Shown: piece by piece, positions 1 to 60,658 of the stretch
Numbering within the stretch: position 1 is the stretch's first letter
How the letters are laid out: every line of letters starts with the position of its first letter
Source of the DNA: a virus
DNA: 64,000 bases
Direction: 5' to 3' (one strand)
Virus record (IMG/VR): IMGVR_UViG_3300036766_000686
Coordinates: 27,711 to 91,710 of that record
Program-made: the position numbers and the translations under genes
The notes under the pieces: generated by a model
Told to the model about the DNA's origin: nothing
Databases searched by the model: none
The model's input: only the letters and a program-made list of their open reading frames with translations

Positions 1-1113
1 AAGTCCTACTTCTCTTAACTTTACTTTGTCTAGCTCCTCGACGATTGAAGCGTCCAAATACTTTCCCAACGCCTCCTCGTGTTGTGATGGCTCTTGAATC
101 TCCAGCCGTTGCTCGTGTTGAAACACAGGAACGTGGCGGGTAAACACGTTGACCCCGCGTTCCTTCAACGCATCGACCTCGCGTTGTAAGTTCGCAAGCG
201 TCACCTTCGCCTCGGCATGGGTCGCAGGGTAATCAATGCGAACATAGTCTCCTTCTCCCACTACCAGTTGCGATTGAAAGCCCCCGCGCTCCCATACCGC
301 AGAAAAGAATCGAGGGGCGACAATGGCAACGCGTTTATGCTCGATACTCGTTCCAGTGAACGTATAAACCGATACCGCTGTTCCGTTGTTACATTCGCCA
401 AAGTCGAGTTGCATTGGAGCGCCAACGTATTCGAAAGTCCGAACCCCCGATACTTCACTATAATTCCTGCGTTGATAAGTATGGAAATGCCCGCTCAGCA
501 CCAGGTCGAAACCTTCGATCAATTCCGAAAGTTCCATCCCTTCATCGCACTCCCACGCCCCATCTCGCATCCCCTTGACGCTTGCGTGAGTTAATAGAAC
601 GTTGCGCGCCGTGACAAAGGAGTTAGATTTTTTGATACCGTCAAGCTCGGCACGCATTTCCGAGAGCGGTGCCCACGATAGCGCATGGAAAGCAACGCCG
701 TCCGCTTTAGAAAACGTGTATCCCTCTCCGCTCTCCATGACGGTTACGGAAGCGCCGTTGACGTGAGGAGCGATCGCGGAGAATACGTCCACGAGCGATC
801 GCCCCCCGTACTTAGTGTGGGCATCGTGATTGCCCGGCAACAGGTAGACCTCGTGTTGTGCCGATAGTTCAAGTATGGCGCTAACCCCCGCGCGTAACGT
901 CACGGCATCAAGGAGACGTTTATCGAATATATCTCCCAAGACCATGATGGCATCGGCATCGAAATCGCGCGCCACTTTCCCGATCTGCTTTACGACCTCT
1001 ATCTGGTCCTTGAGTCTGTCCGTAAGCCCTCGTCCGTCGTCAAGCGGGCGAGCGTAGGGTAGAGCGTTCGAAAAATGAAGGTCAGCGGTGACAACGAGCG
1101 TTAGGTTTTTCAT
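1..1113 (-). CDS. SbcD/Mre11/T4 gp47-like metallophosphoesterase nuclease (3' end runs off the window)
   Basis: Not in the ORF track because it has no stop in the window. Manual translation of the start from ATG at 1113 (ATGA overlap with recA stop) gives MKNLTLVVTADLHFS...VLGDIFDKR, with LPGNHD further on, the calcineurin-like motifs. The same frame is open at the window edge. Confidence 0.85.
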   Translation of the reverse strand, partial: MKNLTLVVTADLHFSNALPYARPLDDGRGLTDRLKDQIEVVKQIGKVARDFDADAIMVLGDIFDKRLLDAVTLRAGVSAILELSAQHEVYLLPGNHDAHTKYGGRSLVDVFSAIAPHVNGASVTVMESGEGYTFSKADGVAFHALSWAPLSEMRAELDGIKKSNSFVTARNVLLTHASVKGMRDGAWECDEGMELSELIEGFDLVLSGHFHTYQRRNYSEVSGVRTFEYVGAPMQLDFGECNNGTAVSVYTFTGTSIEHKRVAIVAPRFFSAVWERGGFQSQLVVGEGDYVRIDYPATHAEAKVTLANLQREVDALKERGVNVFTRHVPVFQHEQRLEIQEPSQHEEALGKYLDASIVEELDKVKLREVGL

Positions 1114-2168
1114 CCCACCACCCCCGTCTCCAGTGCGCTCAGCAGTTTCGCCTTTAGCTCGGGGTTGTCTTTCAGCACCCGCACCATTCCCTCTTCCCCG
1201 TGATAGCTCTCTCCAGCGAACGCGAGCCAGCCTCCGTGGGCGCGTTCGACGATCCCGACCTTCAACGCTTCCTTGAGAATTGAATCCACGTAATCAATGC
1301 CCTTCCCATAAATCACGGTGAACTCCGCACGACGAAACGGAGGGGCGATCTGGTTCTTTGCGATATAAACCTCAACGCGGTTCCCTATCGCTTCCTCGCC
1401 CTCCCCCTTGATCGTGTCCTTGCGGGATACCTGCATCAATAGCGAGGCGTAAAAGCGCGGGGCGTTCCCGCCCGCCGTACGCTCCTTCGACCCGTACATC
1501 ACCCCGATCTTGTCCCGCACCTGAGACACGAGCAACAACGCGATATCCTCGCGGCTCAACATGGGAACGAGTTTCGGCAAGCAACGGCTCCAAACGATCT
1601 GCTCCGGTGTTACCAGTTGTTGATCCCATTCTCCCTCTACCGTTGCCTTCGCTTTGGTGGCGTCGATGGAATCAAGGACAACAAGAATCGGAACCCGCTG
1701 TCCCGAGCTTCGAAACTCCTGAGCAACGTTTACCATGACCTCGATTTTTTCGAACGCTGCCTCAAGGTATCGGGGCTGTAGTATGACCAAGTGATCTGTG
1801 TCCACGCCCAACACCTTCGCATAGTCGGGGTCCAACTTGTGTTCGCTGTCAATGTAGATCGCCATGCCCCCGCGCGCTTGCGCTTCCGCTACACAGTGTA
1901 AAGCCAGTGTCGATTTACCCGCGCCCTCCTTGCCCCACAACATAGTCACCCGACCGAGCGGGATGCCTCCGCGCCCAATCGCTTTGTCGAGCGTTGCGCA
2001 CTGAGTAGAAATTACCCCGCGAATTTTGATCGCCATTCCATCGCTACCGAGGAGCTGCGCGGGGGAGAATTCTTCTCCTCGATTCAACTCCTCGAGTAGC
2101 CGCTCCGCGAAGCCCCCCGGCTTGTGCGCCGGGGAGACCTCGCGTTGTTCCTTCTTGCGGCTTGCCAT
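1110..2168 (-). CDS. recA: RecA recombinase
   Basis: Walker A GKEGAGKST, YIDSEHKLDPDYA, SQVRDKIGVMYG, GGNAPRFYAS, KNQIAPPFR. Confidence 0.95.
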   Translation of the reverse strand: MASRKKEQREVSPAHKPGGFAERLLEELNRGEEFSPAQLLGSDGMAIKIRGVISTQCATLDKAIGRGGIPLGRVTMLWGKEGAGKSTLALHCVAEAQARGGMAIYIDSEHKLDPDYAKVLGVDTDHLVILQPRYLEAAFEKIEVMVNVAQEFRSSGQRVPILVVLDSIDATKAKATVEGEWDQQLVTPEQIVWSRCLPKLVPMLSREDIALLLVSQVRDKIGVMYGSKERTAGGNAPRFYASLLMQVSRKDTIKGEGEEAIGNRVEVYIAKNQIAPPFRRAEFTVIYGKGIDYVDSILKEALKVGIVERAHGGWLAFAGESYHGEEGMVRVLKDNPELKAKLLSALETGVVG

Positions 2169-3997: not shown

Positions 3998-4256
3998 ATT
4001 CCTTCTCTTTCCTCAGTTGATTGCTTATCCTGAAATATAGCGTCCTCGATTTCTTCTTCCCCTTTGAATCCGAAAACGAAAACACCCCATTTTTGCGGGA
4101 CTTCACAGCATTCCCCGCGTAAACTTCATCAATAACCCTTCGCAACAACTCGTCCCCAATGTCTTTAGAACTCAGCCGCGCGCCACAGCAATTGCAATAC
4201 ATCCTAACGCTCGCGGAAATACGGGTGAGAGGTTTAACCTTACTCATACGCCTCAA
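3981..4256 (-). CDS. Hypothetical small basic protein (CxxC)
   Basis: Fills the gap between dnaE and the uvsY-like gene with short overlaps. Confidence 0.5.
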   Translation of the reverse strand: MRRMSKVKPLTRISASVRMYCNCCGARLSSKDIGDELLRRVIDEVYAGNAVKSRKNGVFSFSDSKGKKKSRTLYFRISNQLRKEKEYGRDS

Positions 4257-7200
4257 CCTTTTCGTGCTTATCGAGTGACCACGCCCCTCCGTCTATCCCG
4301 TGTAAAATCGTCTTGATCAATGCTCCGTTTTTGATGCTAGGTTTCAACTCTCTCCACGAGGACGCGAAACACAAGACGCGCAAAAACTCGCCATTGCAAG
4401 CGAGCCCAAACCTGCCCATCGCACGCCCTTCTTTGTCAAAAAGTTCCGACACCCTCGCCACAACTCCTATCACCTTTGCCCTCTTGTCGCTCAGTCTTAC
4501 AACCCCCGCTCTCCCCAGTTTCTTATCCGCTCGATTATTCCACTCCCTCAAAGTCGCAGGGTGTTCGAGGAACAACTGCTCCGCATAGGACTTAATAGAC
4601 TTGTCGTCCATCAACTTTCGAATGTCCGCTAGATAGTTGATGTAAACATTATGCCACTCCGCAGACACGTCTCCGCAGACAAGCAACGGGACTCCATAAT
4701 CTATGACTGGGCGAAACTCCTCGTATAAGTTCCAATCGAGCTTCGCCCACAACGTCGTTCCGCTTGCGCCCTCCAGCAAGACCTTCAACCACTTTCGGTC
4801 CCACCCCTTGTGCTCTCTCTCCTTCTCAGTCCCGGGAATGTTTTCTGCCAACGTCGTGTCCCCGACAAGTCTTTCCTGAAAATCTTTCACAGCCCCAGCA
4901 AGGTAAACCGTTCCCGTCTCCGCAAACAACTCCTCCGATACATCGAATAAAGCTACCTTGACCTTTTCGTTGATGAATCCTTCAAGGTCCACGAGCGGGT
5001 GGGGCAACATGGCAATAGGATTTATTTCAGCGGCAACCGTCAAGCGTTCCCTCTCGGAATACTGAGGCGCGGAGTGAAGGCGCGCACCAAAAGCTTTAAC
5101 AAACTCCTCCTCTTTCCCTTTTGCCACGTAGGTCCAGAAGGCTTCGAAGTTCTCCACGACCCACTTGGGATTCACGAGCAGCGAATCCAGGGCTCCCGAC
5201 TTCGCCAACACGAGCACCGTTCTCTTTGTAACAGCCCTTCCCCTCCGTCGCAAAAAATCAACAAGGTCAGCGTAAGCGCCCCCCTTACCGCGCTCCTCAA
5301 CGATTGATTGCGCTCCAGCTTCTCCAACCCCTTTGATATGCAACAACGACCCGACAATGCACTCCCCATCTTTGTCGAGGGCAAAGCGGGCGCTGGACTT
5401 GTTGATATCGGGAAAGCGAACTGTGACTCCGTGCCTCTCCGCGTCCTTAGCGTATCGTCTAACCTGATCAAGGTCGGGTTCGTTCGCCAACAACGCCCAA
5501 TAGAACTCCAGCGCCCAATGACATTTCAAATACATGGTCCAATACGAGTGCAACGAATAGGAGACGGCATGGGAGTTATGAGAAACAAGCCCGTTAGCTA
5601 AGGTGAATAAATGATCTCCCCCAACTTCGATATCAACCACCGGTCGCACACCCGCGTCCTCCCAGCGTACAAGTCTCCGATAAGAGTAAGTCCGAAAGGC
5701 GGGTCCTTCAGTATTCGAAGCACAGGAAGTTCCCAAACTTTGCGCAAATTTCCGGATGTGGAAAAGCAGTCTATCGACAAACGAACCAAAGATTTTTTTT
5801 GTTTTATTTTGATCCAACGGTCTAAAGCATCGTCCCTCTCTGCTGTTATCTGAAAACGATCTTCTCCCCATAAAGGTTGGAAATGGTGAAGCCCATCTAC
5901 CTCGATTAAAAAAGGGCCAACGAAATCTACTTGCCGAACCATTGTTCCTATCCGTATTTGGACATTTCTCTTGAAGGTTGATTGATCCAACAAGCTCCAA
6001 ATTTTTTCTTCCATATGAGAAACCGTCTTCCGTCTTATTTCTCCCGTCGCCATTCGTGCCGACAGCCGTCTCCCTATCTCTTGAATTTTTTCCGGGTTTC
6101 TCGTCCGCCACTCTTTTAGGCGCCGCGACCGAGCTTCCAAAATGTCTTGTCGAGAAGAGGTTTTTTTCGCCGTTAGTCTCGCCCACTCGATTATCTTGGC
6201 CCTCTCGGCAGGATCGGCCCACCTCTTGCGACAGTTCTCCGCTCGAATATTCAACTTCACTTGTTGGCATACCGTACAGTGTTTTAAGTGCTCGGTCTTT
6301 TGCGACCTCACTTGAAAACTCTGGCCGCAAAGTGTCTTCCATCCTCCGAACTTTCGTTTCATCGACAAGCAATCCGGACACGTCCGCTGATGGTCGATAA
6401 CTTTTTTCATTCCTCGAAGTTCCTGCCCACACCTCGTCTTGTAGAACACACAAGCCTTCCTCAATAATTTCTCTGGTGCTGCATATCCCTCGTTCGGTTT
6501 GCCATCTGTGCCCGAGAGTGCATACCGTTGTTGAACCATCATCAAACTCCAACCTAACCGTTGGCCTGTATTCAATCGGCCAAATATGAATTACTTTTTG
6601 AGTTGTAGGTTTGCCGTTTAAGAACCCAAATATCTTGTCGCCAGCACGTAACTGCCCGATCTCCTTCTCTCCTTCAACCGTAGCGACTTTTTCGGATATG
6701 TCAATACACTTGTTGAAACCGTATCGTCCGAATTTCACAATGGCATCCCACAACTCGTTTCCCACATGCGCGCTCATATCGGGGGTTCGCTTCGCGCAAC
6801 CATCAAGAAACATCTTGCGAAAATCCTCGATTGCGGCGGCGCCTTCGGACTTGCCGATCTTCTTCCTCAATCTATCAGCTTCCTCAGCAGAGAACCCCGC
6901 TACGTCCGTTGCAATCTTGATCACCTGCTCTTGGAATATCAGCAGCCCGAAAGTTTCCTTCGTAATTGCTCCAACTTTGGGGTGGAATAGTTGCTCCTCT
7001 GTGCGCTCAGGCCTCTCTTGTCGAAGTTTGTACTCCGTAGCGAAATCTTTGGCGCCGGGGCGATTTACTGCGTTTAAGTTCACCACATCGTTAAAGCCCT
7101 TGAACGTAAGCCCCAAGGAACAACGGTGAGCGGACGAACTATCAAACTGAAATACTCCTACGAAATCGTGTCCCGTGAACGCTTCTAGCGTCTTGGGATC

Positions 7201-9126
7201 GTCAAGAGGAATACCGTATAACGCGAACGCGGGGGAGACTTGTTTGATGGCTTGCTCGGCTTCGCTCAGTACCGTCACCGTACGGGAGGATAAGACGTCT
7301 ATCTTAATGAGCCCCAACCCTTCAATGCCTTCCATGTCAAACGCCGTTACCACTCCCTTGTTACGGACCTCGATCGGACAGGTATTAACGATAGGCTCTG
7401 GCGCAACAACAACCCCCGCCGCATGAACGCCAAAGGATTTCGTAAGTCCCTCCAGCGCCACAGCGTGTGCAACCACAGAAGGATTTTCCGCGGCGAACTT
7501 CTTAAAAATGTCCTTGTCTTTTAGCGCCTTCTCGATTGCTCCTCGATCGTCTTGCGGCTCGATAGCGGAGGCGGCAATCGAGACGGACTGGTAAGGAACG
7601 TCAAAAACGCGCGCAACGTCTCGCAATACCGCCTTGCCGTTCATCCTGCCGAGGGTCCCGATCAACGCAACTTTTTCCTCTCCGTACTTCTCCTTCAAAT
7701 ATTCAACGATCTCTCCGCGCCTGTCCGCACTAAAATCAATGTCACAGTCAGGCATGTTGATACGCCCCGGGGAGATAAATCGTTCAAACATCAAGTCAAA
7801 TACGATCGGGTCAACGTCGGTTATCCCGAGTAAATACGAAATGAGGGACCCCGCCGCGCTTCCTCGTCCCGGACCTTTTGCTATCCCATGCTCCCGCGCC
7901 CACCTACATACGTCGTATAAGATCAAGAAGTAATCCACGAATCCGTATTTACCCAGCACCTTCAACTCCCGCGCCACTCGCGCGGTATAACTATCGAACT
8001 GAGCAGAGGGCAGCTTGTCGAGCCCGCGCGCCCTTATCCCCTCCCCCGCTAAGTTTATCAAATACTCAGCAGAGGATAAGAAGGGAGGAGGCAAGGATAC
8101 ATGAGGTAATCGAGCTTTCAAAGGATCAATAACTATTCGCGCGCTACACCTTTCGGCAAGTTCCACAGTATTGCGCAACGATTGTTCCACTAAGTGCTCA
8201 GGAATGTGATGGTGATACTCTGAAAACCCATGCCGCATTTCCTCAGCGGACTTGAGGAAATACTGTGTGCCATCGAATGTAAAGCGATCGTCCGTTGCCA
8301 TCGTCGCCTTCGTGCCTATCGCCAACATGACCTCGTGGTGCGCCGCGTCTTGCTCCCGCAAGTAATGAGCGTCTTGAGTTGCTAACAGTTTGCACTTCCC
8401 GCCCGTCAGTGCCAGACAATCCAACGCGAACTGATTTACCCGTTGTTGCCTTGCCTCGCGTAAATCGTGAGGCATGATTTCAAGGTAAAGGTTCTCCCCG
8501 AAGGTATCGTAAAGCATGGAAAACGCTAAGTCCAAATCTTGTGATCTTTTCTCAATCAACGCTCCATTGATCACCGATCCCGCGCACCCCGTTCCCACAG
8601 CAAGCCCTTTGCTCATAGAGCATAGGAACTGTAAATCTATTCTAGGTTTATAATAGAATCCTTCAAGCCACGCCTTGCTCGATAGTGCATACAAGTTCCT
8701 AAGCCCTTCGTCGTCCAGAGCCCACACCGTCAAGTGTTCAACGCGCCTGATGCCCTTCTCCTTTTCTATCTTCTTAATCTCCTCGCGTGTTCTCTTGCGC
8801 TTACCGGAGAAATCAGGATTTACAACGAATAGCTCCCCGCTCGTTTCTTCTTCGTATTTTTCAGCGTCCTCAAGTCCCCGCTGTTTCATGTCCTTGCCAA
8901 CGTAGAACTCGACGCCATAGACAGGCTTGACCCCATGCTTATTGCACTGAGCGGTCAACAGGTACGCCCCACGGATCGTTCCGTGATCAGTCAACGCAAT
9001 CGCGCCATCTCCTCGCTTCGCCGCAGCTTGAACATAGTCCTCGACACGGGCGCACCCGTCCAGCGCACTCATATCCGAATGAACGTGAAGGTGGACGAAC
9101 TCACCGCCCATAATAACCCTCCGCAA
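4240..9126 (-). CDS. dnaE: DNA polymerase III alpha subunit (family C), intein-containing
   Basis: PHP motifs HLHVHS/ALTDHG, GPGRGSAAGS, PDCDIDF, GVHAAG, GVFQF, YGFNK|intein|SHAVSY. Confidence 0.95.
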   Translation of the reverse strand: MRRVIMGGEFVHLHVHSDMSALDGCARVEDYVQAAAKRGDGAIALTDHGTIRGAYLLTAQCNKHGVKPVYGVEFYVGKDMKQRGLEDAEKYEEETSGELFVVNPDFSGKRKRTREEIKKIEKEKGIRRVEHLTVWALDDEGLRNLYALSSKAWLEGFYYKPRIDLQFLCSMSKGLAVGTGCAGSVINGALIEKRSQDLDLAFSMLYDTFGENLYLEIMPHDLREARQQRVNQFALDCLALTGGKCKLLATQDAHYLREQDAAHHEVMLAIGTKATMATDDRFTFDGTQYFLKSAEEMRHGFSEYHHHIPEHLVEQSLRNTVELAERCSARIVIDPLKARLPHVSLPPPFLSSAEYLINLAGEGIRARGLDKLPSAQFDSYTARVARELKVLGKYGFVDYFLILYDVCRWAREHGIAKGPGRGSAAGSLISYLLGITDVDPIVFDLMFERFISPGRINMPDCDIDFSADRRGEIVEYLKEKYGEEKVALIGTLGRMNGKAVLRDVARVFDVPYQSVSIAASAIEPQDDRGAIEKALKDKDIFKKFAAENPSVVAHAVALEGLTKSFGVHAAGVVVAPEPIVNTCPIEVRNKGVVTAFDMEGIEGLGLIKIDVLSSRTVTVLSEAEQAIKQVSPAFALYGIPLDDPKTLEAFTGHDFVGVFQFDSSSAHRCSLGLTFKGFNDVVNLNAVNRPGAKDFATEYKLRQERPERTEEQLFHPKVGAITKETFGLLIFQEQVIKIATDVAGFSAEEADRLRKKIGKSEGAAAIEDFRKMFLDGCAKRTPDMSAHVGNELWDAIVKFGRYGFNKCIDISEKVATVEGEKEIGQLRAGDKIFGFLNGKPTTQKVIHIWPIEYRPTVRLEFDDGSTTVCTLGHRWQTERGICSTREIIEEGLCVLQDEVWAGTSRNEKSYRPSADVSGLLVDETKVRRMEDTLRPEFSSEVAKDRALKTLYGMPTSEVEYSSGELSQEVGRSCREGQDNRVGETNGEKNLFSTRHFGSSVAAPKRVADEKPGKNSRDRETAVGTNGDGRNKTEDGFSYGRKNLELVGSINLQEKCPNTDRNNGSASRFRWPFFNRGRWASPFPTFMGRRSFSDNSREGRCFRPLDQNKTKKIFGSFVDRLLFHIRKFAQSLGTSCASNTEGPAFRTYSYRRLVRWEDAGVRPVVDIEVGGDHLFTLANGLVSHNSHAVSYSLHSYWTMYLKCHWALEFYWALLANEPDLDQVRRYAKDAERHGVTVRFPDINKSSARFALDKDGECIVGSLLHIKGVGEAGAQSIVEERGKGGAYADLVDFLRRRGRAVTKRTVLVLAKSGALDSLLVNPKWVVENFEAFWTYVAKGKEEEFVKAFGARLHSAPQYSERERLTVAAEINPIAMLPHPLVDLEGFINEKVKVALFDVSEELFAETGTVYLAGAVKDFQERLVGDTTLAENIPGTEKEREHKGWDRKWLKVLLEGASGTTLWAKLDWNLYEEFRPVIDYGVPLLVCGDVSAEWHNVYINYLADIRKLMDDKSIKSYAEQLFLEHPATLREWNNRADKKLGRAGVVRLSDKRAKVIGVVARVSELFDKEGRAMGRFGLACNGEFLRVLCFASSWRELKPSIKNGALIKTILHGIDGGAWSLDKHEKVEAYE
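5575..6708 (-). mobile_element. Intein in DnaE (378 aa), no in-frame endonuclease
   Basis: Starts CIDISEKVAT after GFNK; block B CTLGHRW; ends VVDIEVGGDHLFTLANGLVSHN followed by Ser+1; removal restores GFNK-SHA. Confidence 0.92.
5598..6410 (-). CDS. Vsr/DUF559-like PD-(D/E)XK endonuclease nested in the +1 frame of the DnaE intein
   Basis: Track ORF 5598..6575; likely start ATG 6410 (AGGA 10 nt upstream). CPDC/CTVC zinc motifs, basic helical region, SHMEEKIW..FKRNVQI..VDFV..LIEVDGLHHF..RDDALD. Confidence 0.8.
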   Translation of the reverse strand: MKKVIDHQRTCPDCLSMKRKFGGWKTLCGQSFQVRSQKTEHLKHCTVCQQVKLNIRAENCRKRWADPAERAKIIEWARLTAKKTSSRQDILEARSRRLKEWRTRNPEKIQEIGRRLSARMATGEIRRKTVSHMEEKIWSLLDQSTFKRNVQIRIGTMVRQVDFVGPFLIEVDGLHHFQPLWGEDRFQITAERDDALDRWIKIKQKKSLVRLSIDCFSTSGNLRKVWELPVLRILKDPPFGLTLIGDLYAGRTRVCDRWLISKLGEIIYSP

Positions 9127-12097: not shown

Positions 12098-13537
12098 TTA
12101 CCCGTCCACCACGCTCACCTTGAACGCTCGTTCTTTTCGATACACGCCCATCCTACTCCTCGAGTGCTCCGCGAAATAGGGATGGGTTAAATCAACGAAA
12201 TCCACAATAAAAGCACGCTGCTTCCCTGCGTGAGGAGTCAAGCATCGTAACCTTTGGTAAGTCCTCTTGATATCTGACCCGCCTTCTGCAATCACCACCG
12301 CGTCAATCTCGGGAATGTCCACTCCCTCGTCGAAAATCGTCCCAACTAACACGAGTATATCCCCATTCTTGAATCGTGATACCTCACGTTCCCGGTCCTC
12401 GGTCTTGGTTTCGCCGGTCAAACAAGCGTACCGAACTCCTAACTTGTCGAGACGATCGCACAACTCCACAACTTGTTCCAGCCTGCTCGATATCACAACA
12501 ACGCGCAGCCCTTCCTTTGACATACGGAAAGCCTCTGCGGCTATCTTGTCGTTTCGGTAATCGTTGAGGATGATTGCGTCCTTGTGAAGTTTCTGGGACC
12601 AACGACGGCGCCCAAGGTCGGGCTTCCGAATGACGTGCAAAGATACCTCGGGGCGGACCAAATAGTTTTGATCGATCAAGTCGCTCATAGGAACATCGAT
12701 CAAGATGTCCCCGGTACAAGCGTGAAGCCAGATCACGCCAAGTTCCGTTTCGCGTTCGTTGTCGAAAAACACAGTTGCCGAAAGCCCGAGTTTGTAAGGA
12801 GCGTCGGAATCGAGTAGAGCCTGCCTCCACGTTTCACTTTTCAAGTGGTGAATCTCGTCCGCTATCACGAGGTCGGTTCGTTGCAGGAGTTCAAAGTACT
12901 TTTCAAACGTTCGCCCACGGGCCGAGGACAGGGTTTGAAACGACGCCACGTTAATGTCCCGCTCGTTCCATTCCCCATCTCCCATTACGCCAACGTCAAC
13001 CTTCAACGCTTTTTCCAGCGCTTGTCGAGTTTGATGGAGCAGGAAAGTTGCGGGGACGAGAAATAGAGTCCTCACGCCCAGCCGGGCAATGATTGCGGCA
13101 GCGGTGCGGGTCTTGCCCGCCCGAGGAGGCATCTTGACGATGCCCCTCCCGATCGTTCCCAAAGCCCCCTGCGGTGTCGTGGCGCACGTAAGCGCCTCGC
13201 ACTGATAGGGTCGGAGCCCGTCAACGGGCGCGAGACGAAGGAAGGACGCGGGAAAGCGCCGACAGTCCTCGAAATCAAACTCCGTGCCTTGCTCTCTCAG
13301 CGTTGCCATGACGTCGTTAGCCATGCCAGCGGGGAACCTGAGACTGCCATCAGGTAACGCCTTTGCAAGTCTCACCCTACCGTCCCACGTGTGCGCAACA
13401 AAGCGAGGAGAGAAACGCCGCCCCGCCATCAAGTAGGAAGTCCTTTGGGAGATTGCCTTGAGGACTGCCGTGGGGGCTCCGTACAACCTCCCGTGTCGAT
13501 TATCTAAGGTCAGCCTCACTCCTACATTATCGCACAA
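12098..13537 (-). CDS. Superfamily 2 (DExH) helicase, UvsW/XPB-like
   Basis: LRPYQ, PPRAGKT, DEIHH, LGLSAT, EGVDIP. Confidence 0.9.
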   Translation of the reverse strand: MCDNVGVRLTLDNRHGRLYGAPTAVLKAISQRTSYLMAGRRFSPRFVAHTWDGRVRLAKALPDGSLRFPAGMANDVMATLREQGTEFDFEDCRRFPASFLRLAPVDGLRPYQCEALTCATTPQGALGTIGRGIVKMPPRAGKTRTAAAIIARLGVRTLFLVPATFLLHQTRQALEKALKVDVGVMGDGEWNERDINVASFQTLSSARGRTFEKYFELLQRTDLVIADEIHHLKSETWRQALLDSDAPYKLGLSATVFFDNERETELGVIWLHACTGDILIDVPMSDLIDQNYLVRPEVSLHVIRKPDLGRRRWSQKLHKDAIILNDYRNDKIAAEAFRMSKEGLRVVVISSRLEQVVELCDRLDKLGVRYACLTGETKTEDREREVSRFKNGDILVLVGTIFDEGVDIPEIDAVVIAEGGSDIKRTYQRLRCLTPHAGKQRAFIVDFVDLTHPYFAEHSRSRMGVYRKERAFKVSVVDG

Positions 13538-45528: not shown

Positions 45529-45568
45529 TTCCGTTTTTCTCCTTCTGAGTTTGAATCCCTGAGCCCAA

Positions 45569-46522
45569 CTAGATCAGGCCCTTCCAAATGTTGTCGCTCT
45601 TTGTGACGATGCCTTTGTCCGTACCGTCGCCCTCACCCTTCGGCGCGGGGCGTGTGTTCTCGATGGTCGCGAGACGCTTCTCCGTTTCCTCGAGTTTGGA
45701 TTGGAGCGGAGAGGTCGCCGCTTTGACGGCTTCCTCAATCTCGCTCTTGCTCACGGACTTGGCGGGAGTGGCAGTCGTTGCCGAGGTCCACTTGATAGAA
45801 CCGGGAAGTTCCTTGCCCACCAAGGCTTCCATGACGCCCTTGGCCGCTTCCGAGTCCACGCCAGCCAACAGTTCGAGCATTTTACGTGCCGTATCTGCAA
45901 GGCTCGCGGTGCGTTCGCTGGTGAACTGCTTCCCGCCCTTCGCCACGTCCGCGTTGATCGTGACCCGACCGTCCTCGTCAATCTCCACGAGGTTCTTCTT
46001 GGCGGGGATGGACTTCGCTTCATACCCGCATTTCTCGCACACGCCGTCCTTCATGGCACCTTTGCACTTGGGGCAAAGCTCGGGAGCGGCTTTCGTTTCG
46101 CCTTTGTTGTCGGCGGCGGCTTTCGTTGTCGCGTCCTCTTTGCAGGCGCCCGCGCTTCCCGGCGCTTTTTTGTCGGGGGTCGCTTTGGACTCGGGCGAAG
46201 GGTAGGGGTAACTCCCGCCCGCGACCTTGCCGAGAAACGACACAACCCGGGCAATCGAGTCCATGGGGACCCCATCGCCTTTTTGTTGACCCAGCCAAGC
46301 AACGCAATCCTTAATTGCCGTTGCAAGGTCGGCGGGGAGAGCCTTGTTGATTTCTTCGGACGAGCCCCCGTCCTCCCGATCTTTTTCAAACGCGCCCATA
46401 TTTTCCTCCTGTCTTTTGATGACCAGAAACTCCCGCAGAATGGCGGGGCGGTCCACGAGTGATACTTCCTTTACCATCAGGTCAAGTATTTCTCGTGGGT
46501 CCTTTGTATTCGATTCTGCCAT
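45569..46522 (-). CDS. Scaffolding protein
   Basis: N-terminal EVSLVDRPA..FLVIK, charged low-complexity body, coiled coil; directly upstream of capsid gene. Confidence 0.75.
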   Translation of the reverse strand: MAESNTKDPREILDLMVKEVSLVDRPAILREFLVIKRQEENMGAFEKDREDGGSSEEINKALPADLATAIKDCVAWLGQQKGDGVPMDSIARVVSFLGKVAGGSYPYPSPESKATPDKKAPGSAGACKEDATTKAAADNKGETKAAPELCPKCKGAMKDGVCEKCGYEAKSIPAKKNLVEIDEDGRVTINADVAKGGKQFTSERTASLADTARKMLELLAGVDSEAAKGVMEALVGKELPGSIKWTSATTATPAKSVSKSEIEEAVKAATSPLQSKLEETEKRLATIENTRPAPKGEGDGTDKGIVTKSDNIWKGLI

Positions 46523-57268: not shown

Positions 57269-57530
57269 TGATCGGTTCCTCCGTTGTTGAAGTCTTGCCG
57301 TGTTGCTCCATAAAAGCGTCTTGTTGCGTCTCCAATTTTAGGTCCAACTCCTCGAATCTGTTGGCATCAAATAGCAAGCTAAGGCACTTAACGTATTGGG
57401 TATCCGTCATATCGCCTCGTTCCTTCAACACCTCTGCCGATAGTTCAAGTATACGCTCCACCGTCCACGACGGGTCGCGGGTGGATTCCTCAAGGCGATA
57501 CGCCGCCGTACCTTTTTTGGGATCGCTCAT
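57261..57530 (-). CDS. Hypothetical acidic protein
   Basis: ATGA overlap with MuF stop. Confidence 0.6.
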   Translation of the reverse strand: MSDPKKGTAAYRLEESTRDPSWTVERILELSAEVLKERGDMTDTQYVKCLSLLFDANRFEELDLKLETQQDAFMEQHGKTSTTEEPINE

Positions 57531-60500
57531 AGCACCCTCAATTTCGACAGTGCGTCCTGTAACGCTACCTTTTGCTCCCTCGTAAGCTCAGCATTTCCCG
57601 GCAACAACTCGATAAACATTCTAGGCGCATTGTAGTGGGACGCGATGGTTGAGGCAGCGCTGGTACTCATCAGGTGGGAGGCTCGCTCGATTTCGGTCCA
57701 CGCTCGTTCCTTGGCCCACCCCGTCGCCTTCGTGACCGAATTAACTAGATCGTCGATTACCTGACCGTAGGAACGTGACATTGTAAAAATAGATTCCCCG
57801 GCAGGGAACTTGTGCCCAGTAATATCGACAAGAATTTTCCGAGCCGTGATCTCCGTGGATGCCTCACACAACGCCTTTCCTTCGAAATTGTAAGCGCTGG
57901 AAAGGAGACGATTGGAACCGTGGACGGACTCGTGAATGAAGGTAAAAAAGCCCCCATCCCTCATTGTCCCGTTACTTGTTGCTCCTATGCTCGCGGACAT
58001 ATCATCAAAGCGCTTGCCCCTGAGCGTGATCCCCTCGAACCCGTCTCGCCATCCGTTATATTTTCGCGTCCGAGCGTTCCTCTCTATCAAGTCCCTCCGC
58101 GCACCTCCAGTGCGGCTAGGCTCTAAAGACAAACCCCACTGTTTCTCAAAAAAGTCCTCCGTGTTTCGACGAAACTGCGGGAAATCAAACTTGCTAATTT
58201 TTTTCTTCTTATTGCTCGCAAGCGTTTGGTCCCACAGCGTCTTAAACTTCTTGACCTCTTGTTGCAAAACTTCAGGAGCAGCAGGAGTAGGCAAAAGGGG
58301 AATCGGACGCGGAGGAATATAGTTCGACAAGGGTGCGGCGGGGATTACAGCAACAGGCGCCTCAACAGGGACGGCGGCGGGTGCTTCAATAGGTAAAGCC
58401 ACAGGAGGTTCGATTGGGATGGAAACGGGGGGAGCGATCGGGGGTGCTGGAGGGGGGGCAACCGGAGGACGAGGGGCGACAACTGGAGTGCCGGGGATCC
58501 TCGATACCACATCAATGCTACAACGACAGTTATGTACCGCAAATAGTTGTTCACCAACTAAGAAACTCTCATCCTCTTCGACGGTAAGATTCCAGACCAC
58601 TCTATGACTGGAAAATCTTTGAATAAACCCAATAGGAACAAACCCAATTTCTGAAAATGAGAAGGGGTCACATAGATTAAGTGTTCTGGAAATAGCTCTT
58701 GTATAAGATGATCCCTCGGTTTGAACCATCCTTTGACCTCTATCCAAATTTTCCGTCTCGGCAAAAAGAAATCCGGAAGGTATGTTAAGTCCGGGGTCAA
58801 ATAGAAACGTTGGCACTCGTAAAGAAAAGGTTCCTGCAAGGTTAATAATTCTTTGGCTAACTTGTCTTCCCAAGTGCTTCGCAATCTTAACGTACCTTGC
58901 CAAGGTGTCTCCAACGTAGACCAACGCCCGTGCCCAGGCTTTTTGCCAAACATGGGATTTTTTGCACCGGAAAATTGTCCCTTCCTCGCCCCACCTCTGG
59001 GACCACAACCCAATCTCTTCCATCGTTTCGTTCGACAGCCCAGCGAACACGTAAAAATATTTTCTGAATGACACGGAGTCCGCCAAAACTTTTTTCCACA
59101 TTCGGAACAAGCAACGTATTCCCCTTTTATATGGGATATTCTCTTGCACTCGCTGGAACAATAGTGAAACCGATCCTTCTGAAAAGAAGGAATCAAAACT
59201 ATTTTCCCACATTGAGCGCAACGCGCTTGAACCTTCGCGGAGGCAGGCCCCCTCATGGAGCCAGCGCGCGCCCGATTCGCCAACATATATTCGCGAGAAC
59301 AAGACTTCTTCGTTCCGATTCGCGACGGCATTACCATAATGATCTTGCCGCAATTCGCGCAATGGGATGTTACACGGGTTAACTTTTCCAACGAGATCGT
59401 CCTCGATGACTGCACTAAAGATATTACACCCGTCACGGCGAATCAAATAAGGATGGTCCGCTGTCGAAATTATCCCCTCGATGTTTATGAAATCCCCAAG
59501 AAAATCCCTGGACATCACGTTAGAAACTTTTTTCCAACGCAACTTGTGAGTTAAAACCTCGTCTCCAACGCGGATGCTACTTATAGGAATCAAACCTCGA
59601 CGGGACAAGACAGGGGTAGACCCGATAAAACAGTTTAGGTGGAAGGGGGGCAACGCGTTCCCATTCTCTTCCAACTTGCTTGTCAAAGAAGGACCCATCG
59701 GTCCTCGCGCTCCCCCGACAAGCGACAGCGTATCGGATATTGATAGGAAGGGTTGTATTGTCCGTATGCTGGTAGGGTTTTTCGCGCCCAGTATTCGGTT
59801 CGCCAAAGCGCTTCCATCTGCGACCTTGAACCGCTTCCCGTCCAATATCTCGCACCTATCACAGGTCCGTTGGTCTTTCGGATTGACGATTCGATACTCC
59901 GTATACCCTGCGCGCCGCATGACGTTCACACTCGAAATCGCCCGAGACGTCGTTGCGGCGTTGCTCACAAGCCCTTCGAAGTATCGAGCTTGTGTCCCGT
60001 TAAATCCCTTCGGTACGGTGACTTGTGATAGCGTTCGCCCCACCAAGCGCTCCAGCGCCCGCCCCGCCACTTCGTTTGACCTACCTTGCTCCATCACAAA
60101 CTTTTTCGTGGTGGAGGCGATAGCGTTGCCCACGTTTGCCGAGTAATGCTCTCCGATCCAATAAGTTTGATGCTTACCCAAGACGTTCATCGCCGCCTTG
60201 TCTTGCAACCCAAAACCCACACGCAAATTAGGAGGGGGCTCGGCTTTCGTGACCGTCCCCGTGTCCCACTCGCCTATCGGGTACTCAATGGGAGCCTTCA
60301 TCTTGCCCGATATGCGAGCCTGCATTACCTCGAAGGACAGTTTGTAGATCGCCCGCATATCCCTAGTAAATCGTTCCTCGACGATTCCCGCCCACTGTTC
60401 CATCGTCTTTCCTATGCCATTGGAAATCGTCTCCGCGTCCTTATCCGTAAGATCGCCCTTCATCGCCATGAAGCGTTCCCGCGCTTCCCTCGCTGCCTTT

Positions 60501-60658
60501 TTCGCAAGCTGTTCCCACTGAGCCAGCAGGTACTCGCGGAGTTTCGTCTCAATACGAGCGGACTGGGCTAACGCATCCACGCCAATCGACTTAGCGACAA
60601 GATCGTCCAGCAGCCTTACCCCATCGTAGAGGGCATCAATTGTGAGCGTGTCCCGCAT
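57527..60658 (-). CDS. Head morphogenesis protein (SPP1 gp7/Mu gpF) with intein and C-terminal HExxH domain
   Basis: DQRTCDRCEILDG, PPFHLN|intein|CRC; follows portal; Pro-rich linker then FIHESVH..E. Confidence 0.88.
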   Translation of the reverse strand: MRDTLTIDALYDGVRLLDDLVAKSIGVDALAQSARIETKLREYLLAQWEQLAKKAAREARERFMAMKGDLTDKDAETISNGIGKTMEQWAGIVEERFTRDMRAIYKLSFEVMQARISGKMKAPIEYPIGEWDTGTVTKAEPPPNLRVGFGLQDKAAMNVLGKHQTYWIGEHYSANVGNAIASTTKKFVMEQGRSNEVAGRALERLVGRTLSQVTVPKGFNGTQARYFEGLVSNAATTSRAISSVNVMRRAGYTEYRIVNPKDQRTCDRCEILDGKRFKVADGSALANRILGAKNPTSIRTIQPFLSISDTLSLVGGARGPMGPSLTSKLEENGNALPPFHLNCFIGSTPVLSRRGLIPISSIRVGDEVLTHKLRWKKVSNVMSRDFLGDFINIEGIISTADHPYLIRRDGCNIFSAVIEDDLVGKVNPCNIPLRELRQDHYGNAVANRNEEVLFSRIYVGESGARWLHEGACLREGSSALRSMWENSFDSFFSEGSVSLLFQRVQENIPYKRGIRCLFRMWKKVLADSVSFRKYFYVFAGLSNETMEEIGLWSQRWGEEGTIFRCKKSHVWQKAWARALVYVGDTLARYVKIAKHLGRQVSQRIINLAGTFSLRVPTFLFDPGLNIPSGFLFAETENLDRGQRMVQTEGSSYTRAISRTLNLCDPFSFSEIGFVPIGFIQRFSSHRVVWNLTVEEDESFLVGEQLFAVHNCRCSIDVVSRIPGTPVVAPRPPVAPPPAPPIAPPVSIPIEPPVALPIEAPAAVPVEAPVAVIPAAPLSNYIPPRPIPLLPTPAAPEVLQQEVKKFKTLWDQTLASNKKKKISKFDFPQFRRNTEDFFEKQWGLSLEPSRTGGARRDLIERNARTRKYNGWRDGFEGITLRGKRFDDMSASIGATSNGTMRDGGFFTFIHESVHGSNRLLSSAYNFEGKALCEASTEITARKILVDITGHKFPAGESIFTMSRSYGQVIDDLVNSVTKATGWAKERAWTEIERASHLMSTSAASTIASHYNAPRMFIELLPGNAELTREQKVALQDALSKLRVL
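58529..59632 (-). mobile_element. Intein in MuF (368 aa), no in-frame endonuclease
   Basis: Starts CFIGSTPV..IPISSIRVGDEVLTH; block B STADHP; ends VVWNLTVEEDESFLV..AVHN followed by Cys+1; removal restores PPFHLN-CRC. Confidence 0.92.
58558..59436 (-). CDS. PD-(D/E)XK endonuclease with three zinc-finger repeats and NUMOD3-like motif, nested in the +1 frame of the MuF intein
   Basis: CxxCGK..CS..C x3; GAKNPMFGKK; RSTWE..YE..YLPDF..WIEVKG; alternative start TTG 59391 with GAGGA 8 nt upstream. Confidence 0.85.
   Translation of the reverse strand: MTGVISLVQSSRTISLEKLTRVTSHCANCGKIIMVMPSRIGTKKSCSREYMLANRARAGSMRGPASAKVQARCAQCGKIVLIPSFQKDRFHYCSSECKRISHIKGEYVACSECGKKFWRTPCHSENIFTCSLGCRTKRWKRLGCGPRGGARKGQFSGAKNPMFGKKPGHGRWSTLETPWQGTLRLRSTWEDKLAKELLTLQEPFLYECQRFYLTPDLTYLPDFFLPRRKIWIEVKGWFKPRDHLIQELFPEHLIYVTPSHFQKLGLFLLGLFKDFPVIEWSGILPSKRMRVS

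Follow-up and report, generated by a model that had tools for sequence, protein, structure and literature searches.

Vsr-like homing endonucleases are known from the fractured genes of phages, in which a free-standing endonuclease gene lies between the two halves of a split intein (Dassa et al. 2009; PMC2677866). Endonuclease genes that lie out of frame or antisense within contiguous inteins were noted by Gorbalenya in 1998, according to the citation of that work in 10.64898/2026.09.14.751524. Gosselin, Arsenault and Gogarten (10.1101/2025.01.02.630785) have since described actinophage inteins with antisense LAGLIDADG, antisense Vsr-like and frame-3 endonuclease VII-like genes, and proposed that such inteins originate when a free-standing endonuclease gene invades an intein; Vsr-like nucleases have otherwise been reported with split inteins only (PMC2677866). 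In a cyanobacterial dnaX intein, a LAGLIDADG endonuclease is encoded out of frame at +2 (Phillips et al., 10.64898/2026.09.14.751524). The prototype of the EDxHD homing endonucleases, I-Bth0305I, has been characterized structurally (Taylor et al. 2011, PMC3239194; PDB 3R3P). Here we analyse 64,000 nucleotides of an uncultured phage (the window; bases 27711-91710 of the 91.7-kb IMG/VR virus record IMGVR_UViG_3300036766_000686, estimated completeness 91%), whose dnaE gene for DNA polymerase III alpha very probably carries a contiguous class-1 intein overprinted, in the +1 frame of the same strand, by a free-standing type of homing endonuclease gene. In the literature searched, which lies outside subscription journals, we came across no contiguous intein with a Vsr-like/EDxHD gene in the +1 frame of the sense strand, nor any description of this layout as the usual state of a family.

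The host gene and its intein are laid out as follows (frame 0 is the DnaE reading frame).

4240..9126, minus strand: dnaE open reading frame (ORF) including the intein, annotated with a TTG start at 9126
5575..6708, minus strand: class-1 intein in frame 0, 378 codons, DnaE residues 807-1184
6430..6708, minus strand: N-terminal splicing domain, intein residues 1-93
5695..6429, minus strand: frame-0 linker, intein residues 94-338 (~245 residues), stop-free, unconserved and polar
5575..5694, minus strand: C-terminal splicing domain, intein residues 339-378, with blocks F and G

The dnaE frame is open without a break over 1,628 codons and likely starts at ATG 9111 (MGGEFVHLHVHS). Its product carries the PHP, DNA_pol3_alpha, finger and HHH_6 domains (Pfam) and matches NCBIfam PRK05673 at 9e-239. 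Alignments to DnaE family models reach residue 806-807 and pick up again after the insert, whose junctions (GFNK/CIDIS ... LVSHN/SHA, slashes marking the insert boundaries) fall within GFNK-SHA, a conserved motif of polymerase III alpha; the intein boundaries given in the first-pass annotation are borne out. The residues of a class-1 intein are present: Cys1, T64-x-x-H67 in block B, D359 and H366 in block F, H377-N378 and Ser+1. Among these, H67, D359, H366 and N378 are invariant in an alignment of the window intein with twelve related inteins in their host-frame reading (A3, 13 sequences). The intein C-terminal model TIGR01443 scores 18.1 bits against a cut-off of 15.6.

Within this intein, the +1 frame is open over 990 nt (5601-6590). 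Elsewhere in dnaE the next longest such run is 351 nt and the others are no longer than 171 nt.

5598..6575, minus strand: +1 ORF P0002, 325 aa, wholly within the intein, starting at dnaE offset 2551

We recoded each frame synonymously with the codon usage of the phage, generating 20,000 recodings each way. Recoding P0002 introduced a mean of 15.2 stops into the DnaE frame, where none is observed, and 0 of 20,000 recodings were stop-free; the analytic probability of a stop-free frame 0 across P0002 is 1.4e-8. Recoding the frame-0 segment introduced a mean of 6.2 stops into the +1 frame, and only 12 of 20,000 recodings had none. Because recoding almost never leaves the other frame stop-free, both frames are open beyond chance; that both are constrained had been suggested from the letters alone.

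HMMER, run in full against 1.84 billion representative proteins, returned 134 homologues of P0002 at E<=1e-3, nearly all of them 200-350 aa long and from metagenomes; the homologue clusters that we checked (10 of 10) are unnamed or called hypothetical. An alignment of 34 sequences of this +1 nuclease family (A1) has nine invariant residues, E189, D217, E225, D227, G228, H231, F232, D248 and R265, all intact in P0002. In order, E189, D217, E225/D227, H231 and D248 match E170, D196, H213 and D222 of I-Bth0305I (PMC3239194), with one extra conserved acidic residue in the P0002 family. The CPDC, CTVC, IEVDGLHH and RD..D motifs that had first drawn attention to this frame are all present in P0002. 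Two parts of the protein stand out.

6261..6449, minus strand: two Cys-His-Cys-Cys zinc-knuckle modules, P0002 residues 43-105, seen as a repeat in A1
5676..6026, minus strand: Vsr-like/EDxHD nuclease core, P0002 residues 184-300, defined by the invariant columns of A1 and by fold

The zinc-knuckle modules share the consensus GW..CG..F......H...C..C, weakly resemble the JAZ zinc finger 2mkn in structure (Z 4.7) and are probably DNA-binding. In an AlphaFold2 model of P0002 built from A1 (mean predicted local distance difference test score (pLDDT) 85), they and a set of long helices precede the nuclease core. Searching structural representatives with this model (VIA-align) placed Vsr (1cw0) first, at Z 10.1 over 133 aligned residues (root-mean-square deviation (rmsd) 4.5), I-Bth0305I (3r3p, a chain of 98 residues) second, at Z 7.6 over 92 aligned residues (rmsd 3.4), and the DUF559-like 3hrl fourth, at Z 7.2. 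Foldseek also ranked 1cw0 top (probability 0.97). Matches in PHROGs were to HNH/homing endonuclease families (3e-5 and 0.027), and PDB sequences searched with phmmer yielded no meaningful match to P0002. A nuclease fold in the +1 frame had been predicted and is found in the model; the label attached to it, Vsr/DUF559-like, holds for motif and fold but not for the Pfam models, as neither Vsr (PF03852) nor DUF559 (PF04480) matched P0002 even at E<=1. Motif and modelled fold thus support grouping P0002 with the EDxHD homing endonucleases. Like I-Bth0305I, it combines the composite E-D-x-H-D residues with a Vsr-like fold and has a bipartite layout, in which the C-terminal nuclease is preceded by a DNA-binding part (in P0002 a probable one). 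By contrast, I-Bth0305I resides in a group I intron of recA and carries NUMOD-type motifs, whereas P0002 lies in an intein and carries zinc-knuckle modules, and the sequence similarity between the two is too low for a significant hidden Markov model match.

The frame-0 reading of the same DNA looks quite different. In the frame-0 intein model, pLDDT exceeds 90 at residues 1-93 and 341-378 (above 93 for the C-terminal splicing domain), and both ends are conserved in A3, over ~92 N-terminal and ~45 C-terminal columns. Between them A3 has no conserved column, and residues 96-338 are modelled as coil with no secondary structure, at pLDDT 30-48. Polar and small residues make up 70% of this interior compared with 53% of the exteins, and it has no Pfam match and no PDB sequence match. 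The confident parts gave 39 Foldseek matches at E<=1e-3, the best being the gp41-1 intein (6qaz, E 1.3e-6); the matches listed are all inteins, intein-like (BIL) or hedgehog autoprocessing (HINT) domains, and DnaE and DnaB inteins are among them. The models therefore support folding of only the outer parts of the frame-0 intein, as a HINT domain nearest to the gp41-1 intein. The interior had been anticipated as a disordered loop, and a folded, conserved domain there would have spoken against the whole idea; we see neither a domain match nor conservation among relatives. The frame-0 linker is a shadow reading of the endonuclease gene.

To place the locus among its relatives, we scanned IMG/VR with the nuclease alignment, which yielded 19 loci; an alignment query was needed, as a first viral scan with P0002 alone had given no match. 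A metagenome scan returned only the contig of locus L002, and a genome scan returned three contigs of metagenome-assembled genomes (MAGs). In 16 of the 19 viral loci, representing 13 distinct elements, the nuclease homologue lies fully inside a host ORF of 757-1830 aa, always in its +1 frame, and two of the MAG contigs (L022, L023) have the same layout. The flanks of the nested genes are intein blocks, with ...DHKFLT... upstream and ...MYDLEV.HP.HNF.LPNG.VTSN/S downstream. The hosts are dnaE, at the same GFNK/S site, and at least two other proteins without family assignment. Thus, +1 nesting is the usual state of a whole phage intein family and is not unique to the window.

Some members of this family depart from the common pattern in detail. 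One contig (IMGVR_UViG_3300037520_002447) carries two nested nuclease-inteins, one in dnaE (L014) and one in a 1682-aa protein without family assignment (L015). In the dnaE intein at L017:2495-7180, the +1 nuclease follows directly after the first ~10 intein residues (GFNK/CVCYNQPITV...) and not between blocks B and F. The dnaE inteins of L007, L008, L010 and the homologue P0082 begin with Thr (GFNK/TVDK..., /TLTED..., /TMDQ...), an unusual first residue for an intein.

Across the nested loci, 4.8-33.6 host-frame stops were expected per locus and none was observed (P of none from 6e-3 to 2e-21). For a host-frame stop to appear, a nuclease codon with T as its last base must precede a codon starting with AA, AG or GA. 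In the nested loci, T occupies the third position before such codons in 0 of 1,405 cases, compared with 25% elsewhere; at L013, a fractured locus, it does so in 30 of 90. Each codon ending in T has a synonym ending in C, and the +1 layout would therefore cost the nuclease no amino-acid change. We infer that synonymous choice of C over T is what keeps frame 0 open.

The core 190 codons give a mean pairwise alignment score of 283 when read in the endonuclease frame and of 68 when read in the host frame, with identities of 42% and 28%, respectively. Conservation thus lies in the +1 frame only. Divergence of the splicing domains correlates with that of the nuclease (Spearman rho 0.71, 78 pairs), so the two evolve as one unit. 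An open frame 0 in every nested locus might also be expected if the linker were functional itself, for example in tuning splicing or polymerase maturation, such that both readings encode functional proteins. We give this very little credence: the need to translate the C-extein fully accounts for the open frame, the linker has no conserved columns, intein length varies from 349 to 430 aa, the composition is biased, coil is predicted, and mini-inteins at the same site do without a linker. The recurrence of the layout bears equally on the concern that two compensating indels in the assembly moved an in-frame endonuclease domain out of frame. Homopolymer runs (T8, T7 and A6) do lie inside the region, but such an artefact would require frame 0 to be stop-free by chance across some 330 codons (P about 1e-8), the same frame relation recurs in contigs of over a dozen different metagenomes, and no in-frame long form exists among the 134 homologues save the split form P0082. 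An assembly artefact is effectively refuted.

With the overprinted nuclease gene as the preferred reading, the position of its start codon becomes relevant.

5598..6449, minus strand: homing endonuclease ORF in +1 as read from GTG 6449, 283 aa, stop codon at 5598-5600
6455..6462, minus strand: Shine-Dalgarno-like GAGGAAGG, 5 nt upstream of GTG 6449, from sequence reading only
6547-6550, minus strand: GGAG, 4 and 7 nt upstream of the tandem ATG codons at 6542 and 6539

Homologue N termini align at P0002 residues 45-47, and GTG 6449 is where the free-standing homologues start. In the P0002 model, pLDDT is below 50 at residues 1-33 and high from about residue 41, that is, near GTG 6449. Starting at ATG 6542 or 6539 would make the product ~30 aa longer, so that the options span 283-314 aa. 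In the +1 frame, the codons for the conserved intein motif FDDG yield this ATG pair, and the closest relative, L002, has the same pair with GGAGG upstream. The first-pass annotation had singled out ATG 6410, which is probably not the start: a GAGGA abuts the codon directly, and initiation there would drop the first zinc module. We favour GTG 6449, with ATG 6539 and 6542 retained as candidates. RNA around GTG 6449 shows no notable structure (fold z -1.2).

The ambiguity of the start codon would also suit production of the nuclease by +1 ribosomal frameshifting from dnaE, giving a fusion of the DnaE N-terminal part, the N-terminal intein half and the nuclease. Another phage encodes such an in-frame fusion of an N-terminal intein half with the nuclease (P0082). 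In most related loci, on the other hand, an ATG immediately precedes the first zinc module, and in several of them (L003, L006, L008 and L009) AGGAG lies 5-8 nt upstream; free-standing homologues start at the equivalent position; and neither a slippery site nor a conserved structure was seen at the junction (fold z-score -1.2). Frameshifting is consequently a very improbable source of the nuclease, and separate initiation inside the intein is the route that we prefer.

At its 3' end, the nuclease gene runs into the conserved part of the intein.

5598..5694, minus strand: overlap of the nuclease tail (pLDDT 69-79) with the C-terminal splicing domain

Here intein block F (VYDLEV), when read in +1, gives the conserved family tail CTILKSP; the constraint therefore shifts to frame 0 at the 3' end. 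We reject an antisense nuclease, as no family matched the antisense ORFs at 5978-6400, 6611-7129 and 5611-5853.

The dnaE insertion site occurs in further states among relatives. Four loci (L024, L038, L039 and L041) carry mini-inteins of ~130-190 residues that lack a nuclease gene and occupy the same place in dnaE. A short interior remnant is kept in L041 and in L042. At L013:1-2400, dnaE is truly fractured at this insertion site: a stop closes the N-terminal intein half, a second frame holds the nuclease, and the C-terminal half with the C-extein starts at an ATG in a third frame. In the phage encoding P0082, a dnaE fragment and N-terminal intein half continue in frame into the nuclease, followed by a stop. 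The window dnaE is not split into two ORFs, and its frame 0 is open through the whole intein. This layout is intermediate between a mini-intein and the fractured genes described by Dassa et al. 2009 (PMC2677866).

The resemblance to those fractured genes is close. They too combine a Vsr-like nuclease with phage replication-gene hosts, including dnaE, and a location between the intein halves; the 3' end of their nuclease gene overlaps the C-terminal intein half; gp41-1, the best structural match of the window intein, is one of their split inteins; and L013 has the present nuclease family in a fractured dnaE at the same site. The differences are that the N-terminal half in the window has no stop, such that its intein is unbroken and is expected to splice in cis, and that the overlap in the fractured genes is 6-69 bp, whereas in the window it takes in the whole gene (about 850 nt). 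More tentatively, the overprinted +1 layout could be a long-lived ancestral state of the lineage and the direct precursor of split inteins of the gp41-1 type. A cis-splicing intein would then become a fractured gene through one frame-0 nonsense change that is silent in the nuclease, plus an internal start, and the +1 frame would be favoured as synonymous T-to-C changes avoid every stop. We consider this quite possible, if somewhat short of probable.

Evidence of mobility comes from two relatives in different samples, L011:4019-6298 and L012:427-2706. Their exteins differ at 25 of 1,062 nt, 20 of these differences being synonymous, and their inteins at 1 of 1,218 nt (probability of one difference or fewer at the extein rate, 1e-11). 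The identity continues ~80 nt upstream and ~40 nt downstream of the intein, a pattern as expected after recent homing with co-conversion, judged from these sequences.

The mini-inteins at the same dnaE site show that nuclease loss does happen. The window gene might accordingly be a decaying relic, that is, a mini-intein with a long junk linker in which the +1 frame is still open for lack of time, and tblastn of P0002 against GenBank phage records found no match. We think this improbable, as the window copy retains all nine residues invariant in the family, the P0002 model is confident, frame-0 recoding leaves +1 open in only 12 of 20,000 cases, and conservation stays with the +1 frame among elements that now share about 42% identity.

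In the reading that we prefer, an intact nuclease gene overprinted on a functional intein, translation of frame 0 would yield a precursor with two HINT halves joined by the ~245-residue unstructured linker, and splicing through Cys1, Ser+1 and Asn378 would remove the intein and rejoin GFNK to SHA in the polymerase. Translation starting anew within the intein, from GTG 6449 or from ATG 6542/6539 (both preceded by a Shine-Dalgarno-like motif), would produce an endonuclease of ~283-314 aa, predicted to comprise the two zinc-knuckle modules, the helical region and the Vsr-like EDxHD catalytic core. This enzyme may cut intein-less dnaE alleles near the insertion site, and recombinational repair would copy the intein together with the nuclease gene into the cut allele; the phage itself encodes a UvsX-like recombinase.

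Several points weigh against this account. The nuclease start is ambiguous, with three candidates, and no promoter-like site stands above chance; promoter-like and terminator-like sites are not commoner than in shuffled sequence. P0002 matched no Pfam, NCBIfam or PADLOC nuclease family, no nuclease model being reached at threshold. The A1 profile against PDB sequences gave only 3hrl, at E 0.13, with 3r3p not among the matches, so the EDxHD assignment rests on motif and fold. The low model confidence of the frame-0 interior stems from a shallow alignment of 13 sequences. The nested relatives are all of one ancestry and thus do not represent independent origins of the layout, and the homing signature belongs to L011 and L012, not to the window locus.

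As modelled, the window intein nonetheless combines what distinguishes non-canonical inteins: splicing domains in the host frame, an unfolded in-frame interior and a nuclease fold in an overlapping frame. It shares with the actinobacteriophage examples a contiguous intein, an endonuclease in another frame or strand and an in-frame interior without recognizable fold. There, the Vsr-like genes are antisense only and the sense-strand case is an endonuclease VII-like gene in frame 3, whereas the window, which comes from an uncultured phage, has a sense-strand +1 Vsr-like/EDxHD gene. With the cyanobacterial dnaX intein it shares disorder of the in-frame interior, an overlapping sense frame that encodes a folded nuclease and is under purifying selection, and coexisting mini-intein alleles; that case differs in having a LAGLIDADG enzyme, a +2 ORF and a bacterial chromosome as host, where ours is a phage. 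Out-of-frame endonucleases in inteins were thus already known. What is added here is the recurrence across a family, the codon-level mechanism, the three-state series at the dnaE site and a second, unrelated case in the same phage.

This second case lies in a gene for a minor head protein.

57527-60658, minus strand: Mu-F-like minor head protein, 1043 aa, holding a second non-canonical intein
58529-59632, minus strand: second intein, 368 codons, HLN/CFIGS...AVHN/C
58558-59436, minus strand: P0137, 292 aa, in +1 inside the second intein, with several CxxC motifs and a nuclease core

The core of P0137 matches the PHROG annotations 'Holliday junction resolvase' (8e-15) and 'endonuclease' (8e-11). 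At this locus 13.7 frame-0 stops are expected and 0 observed (P 5e-8). The second intein and P0137 belong to families unrelated to those of the dnaE case, and the distant IMG/VR relatives of P0137 are free-standing genes, not nested ones. A minor capsid protein as host is a further likeness to the actinobacteriophage inteins (10.1101/2025.01.02.630785). A third overlap in the window, on the plus strand at 45563-46459, pairs a 299-codon ORF with a 210-codon stop-free run in a neighbouring sense frame; neither product matches a PHROG family, and this overlap may be due to chance.

Together with two other genes, dnaE lies in a minus-strand replication and recombination module.

1110-2168, minus strand: UvsX-like recombinase
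12098-13537, minus strand: DNA helicase

Split inteins are widely used protein-engineering tools, and the present locus bears on how free-standing homing endonuclease genes enter inteins and how natural split inteins arise. One dnaE site in three states, namely as a mini-intein, as a contiguous intein with an out-of-frame nuclease and in fractured or split form, suggests a stepwise path. The absence of codons ending in T before AA, AG or GA provides a quantifiable case of selection at synonymous sites maintaining a second reading frame. Overprinted genes are systematically missed in annotation, so that active nucleases may go unnoticed within inteins classed as decaying or as 'mini with a long linker'.

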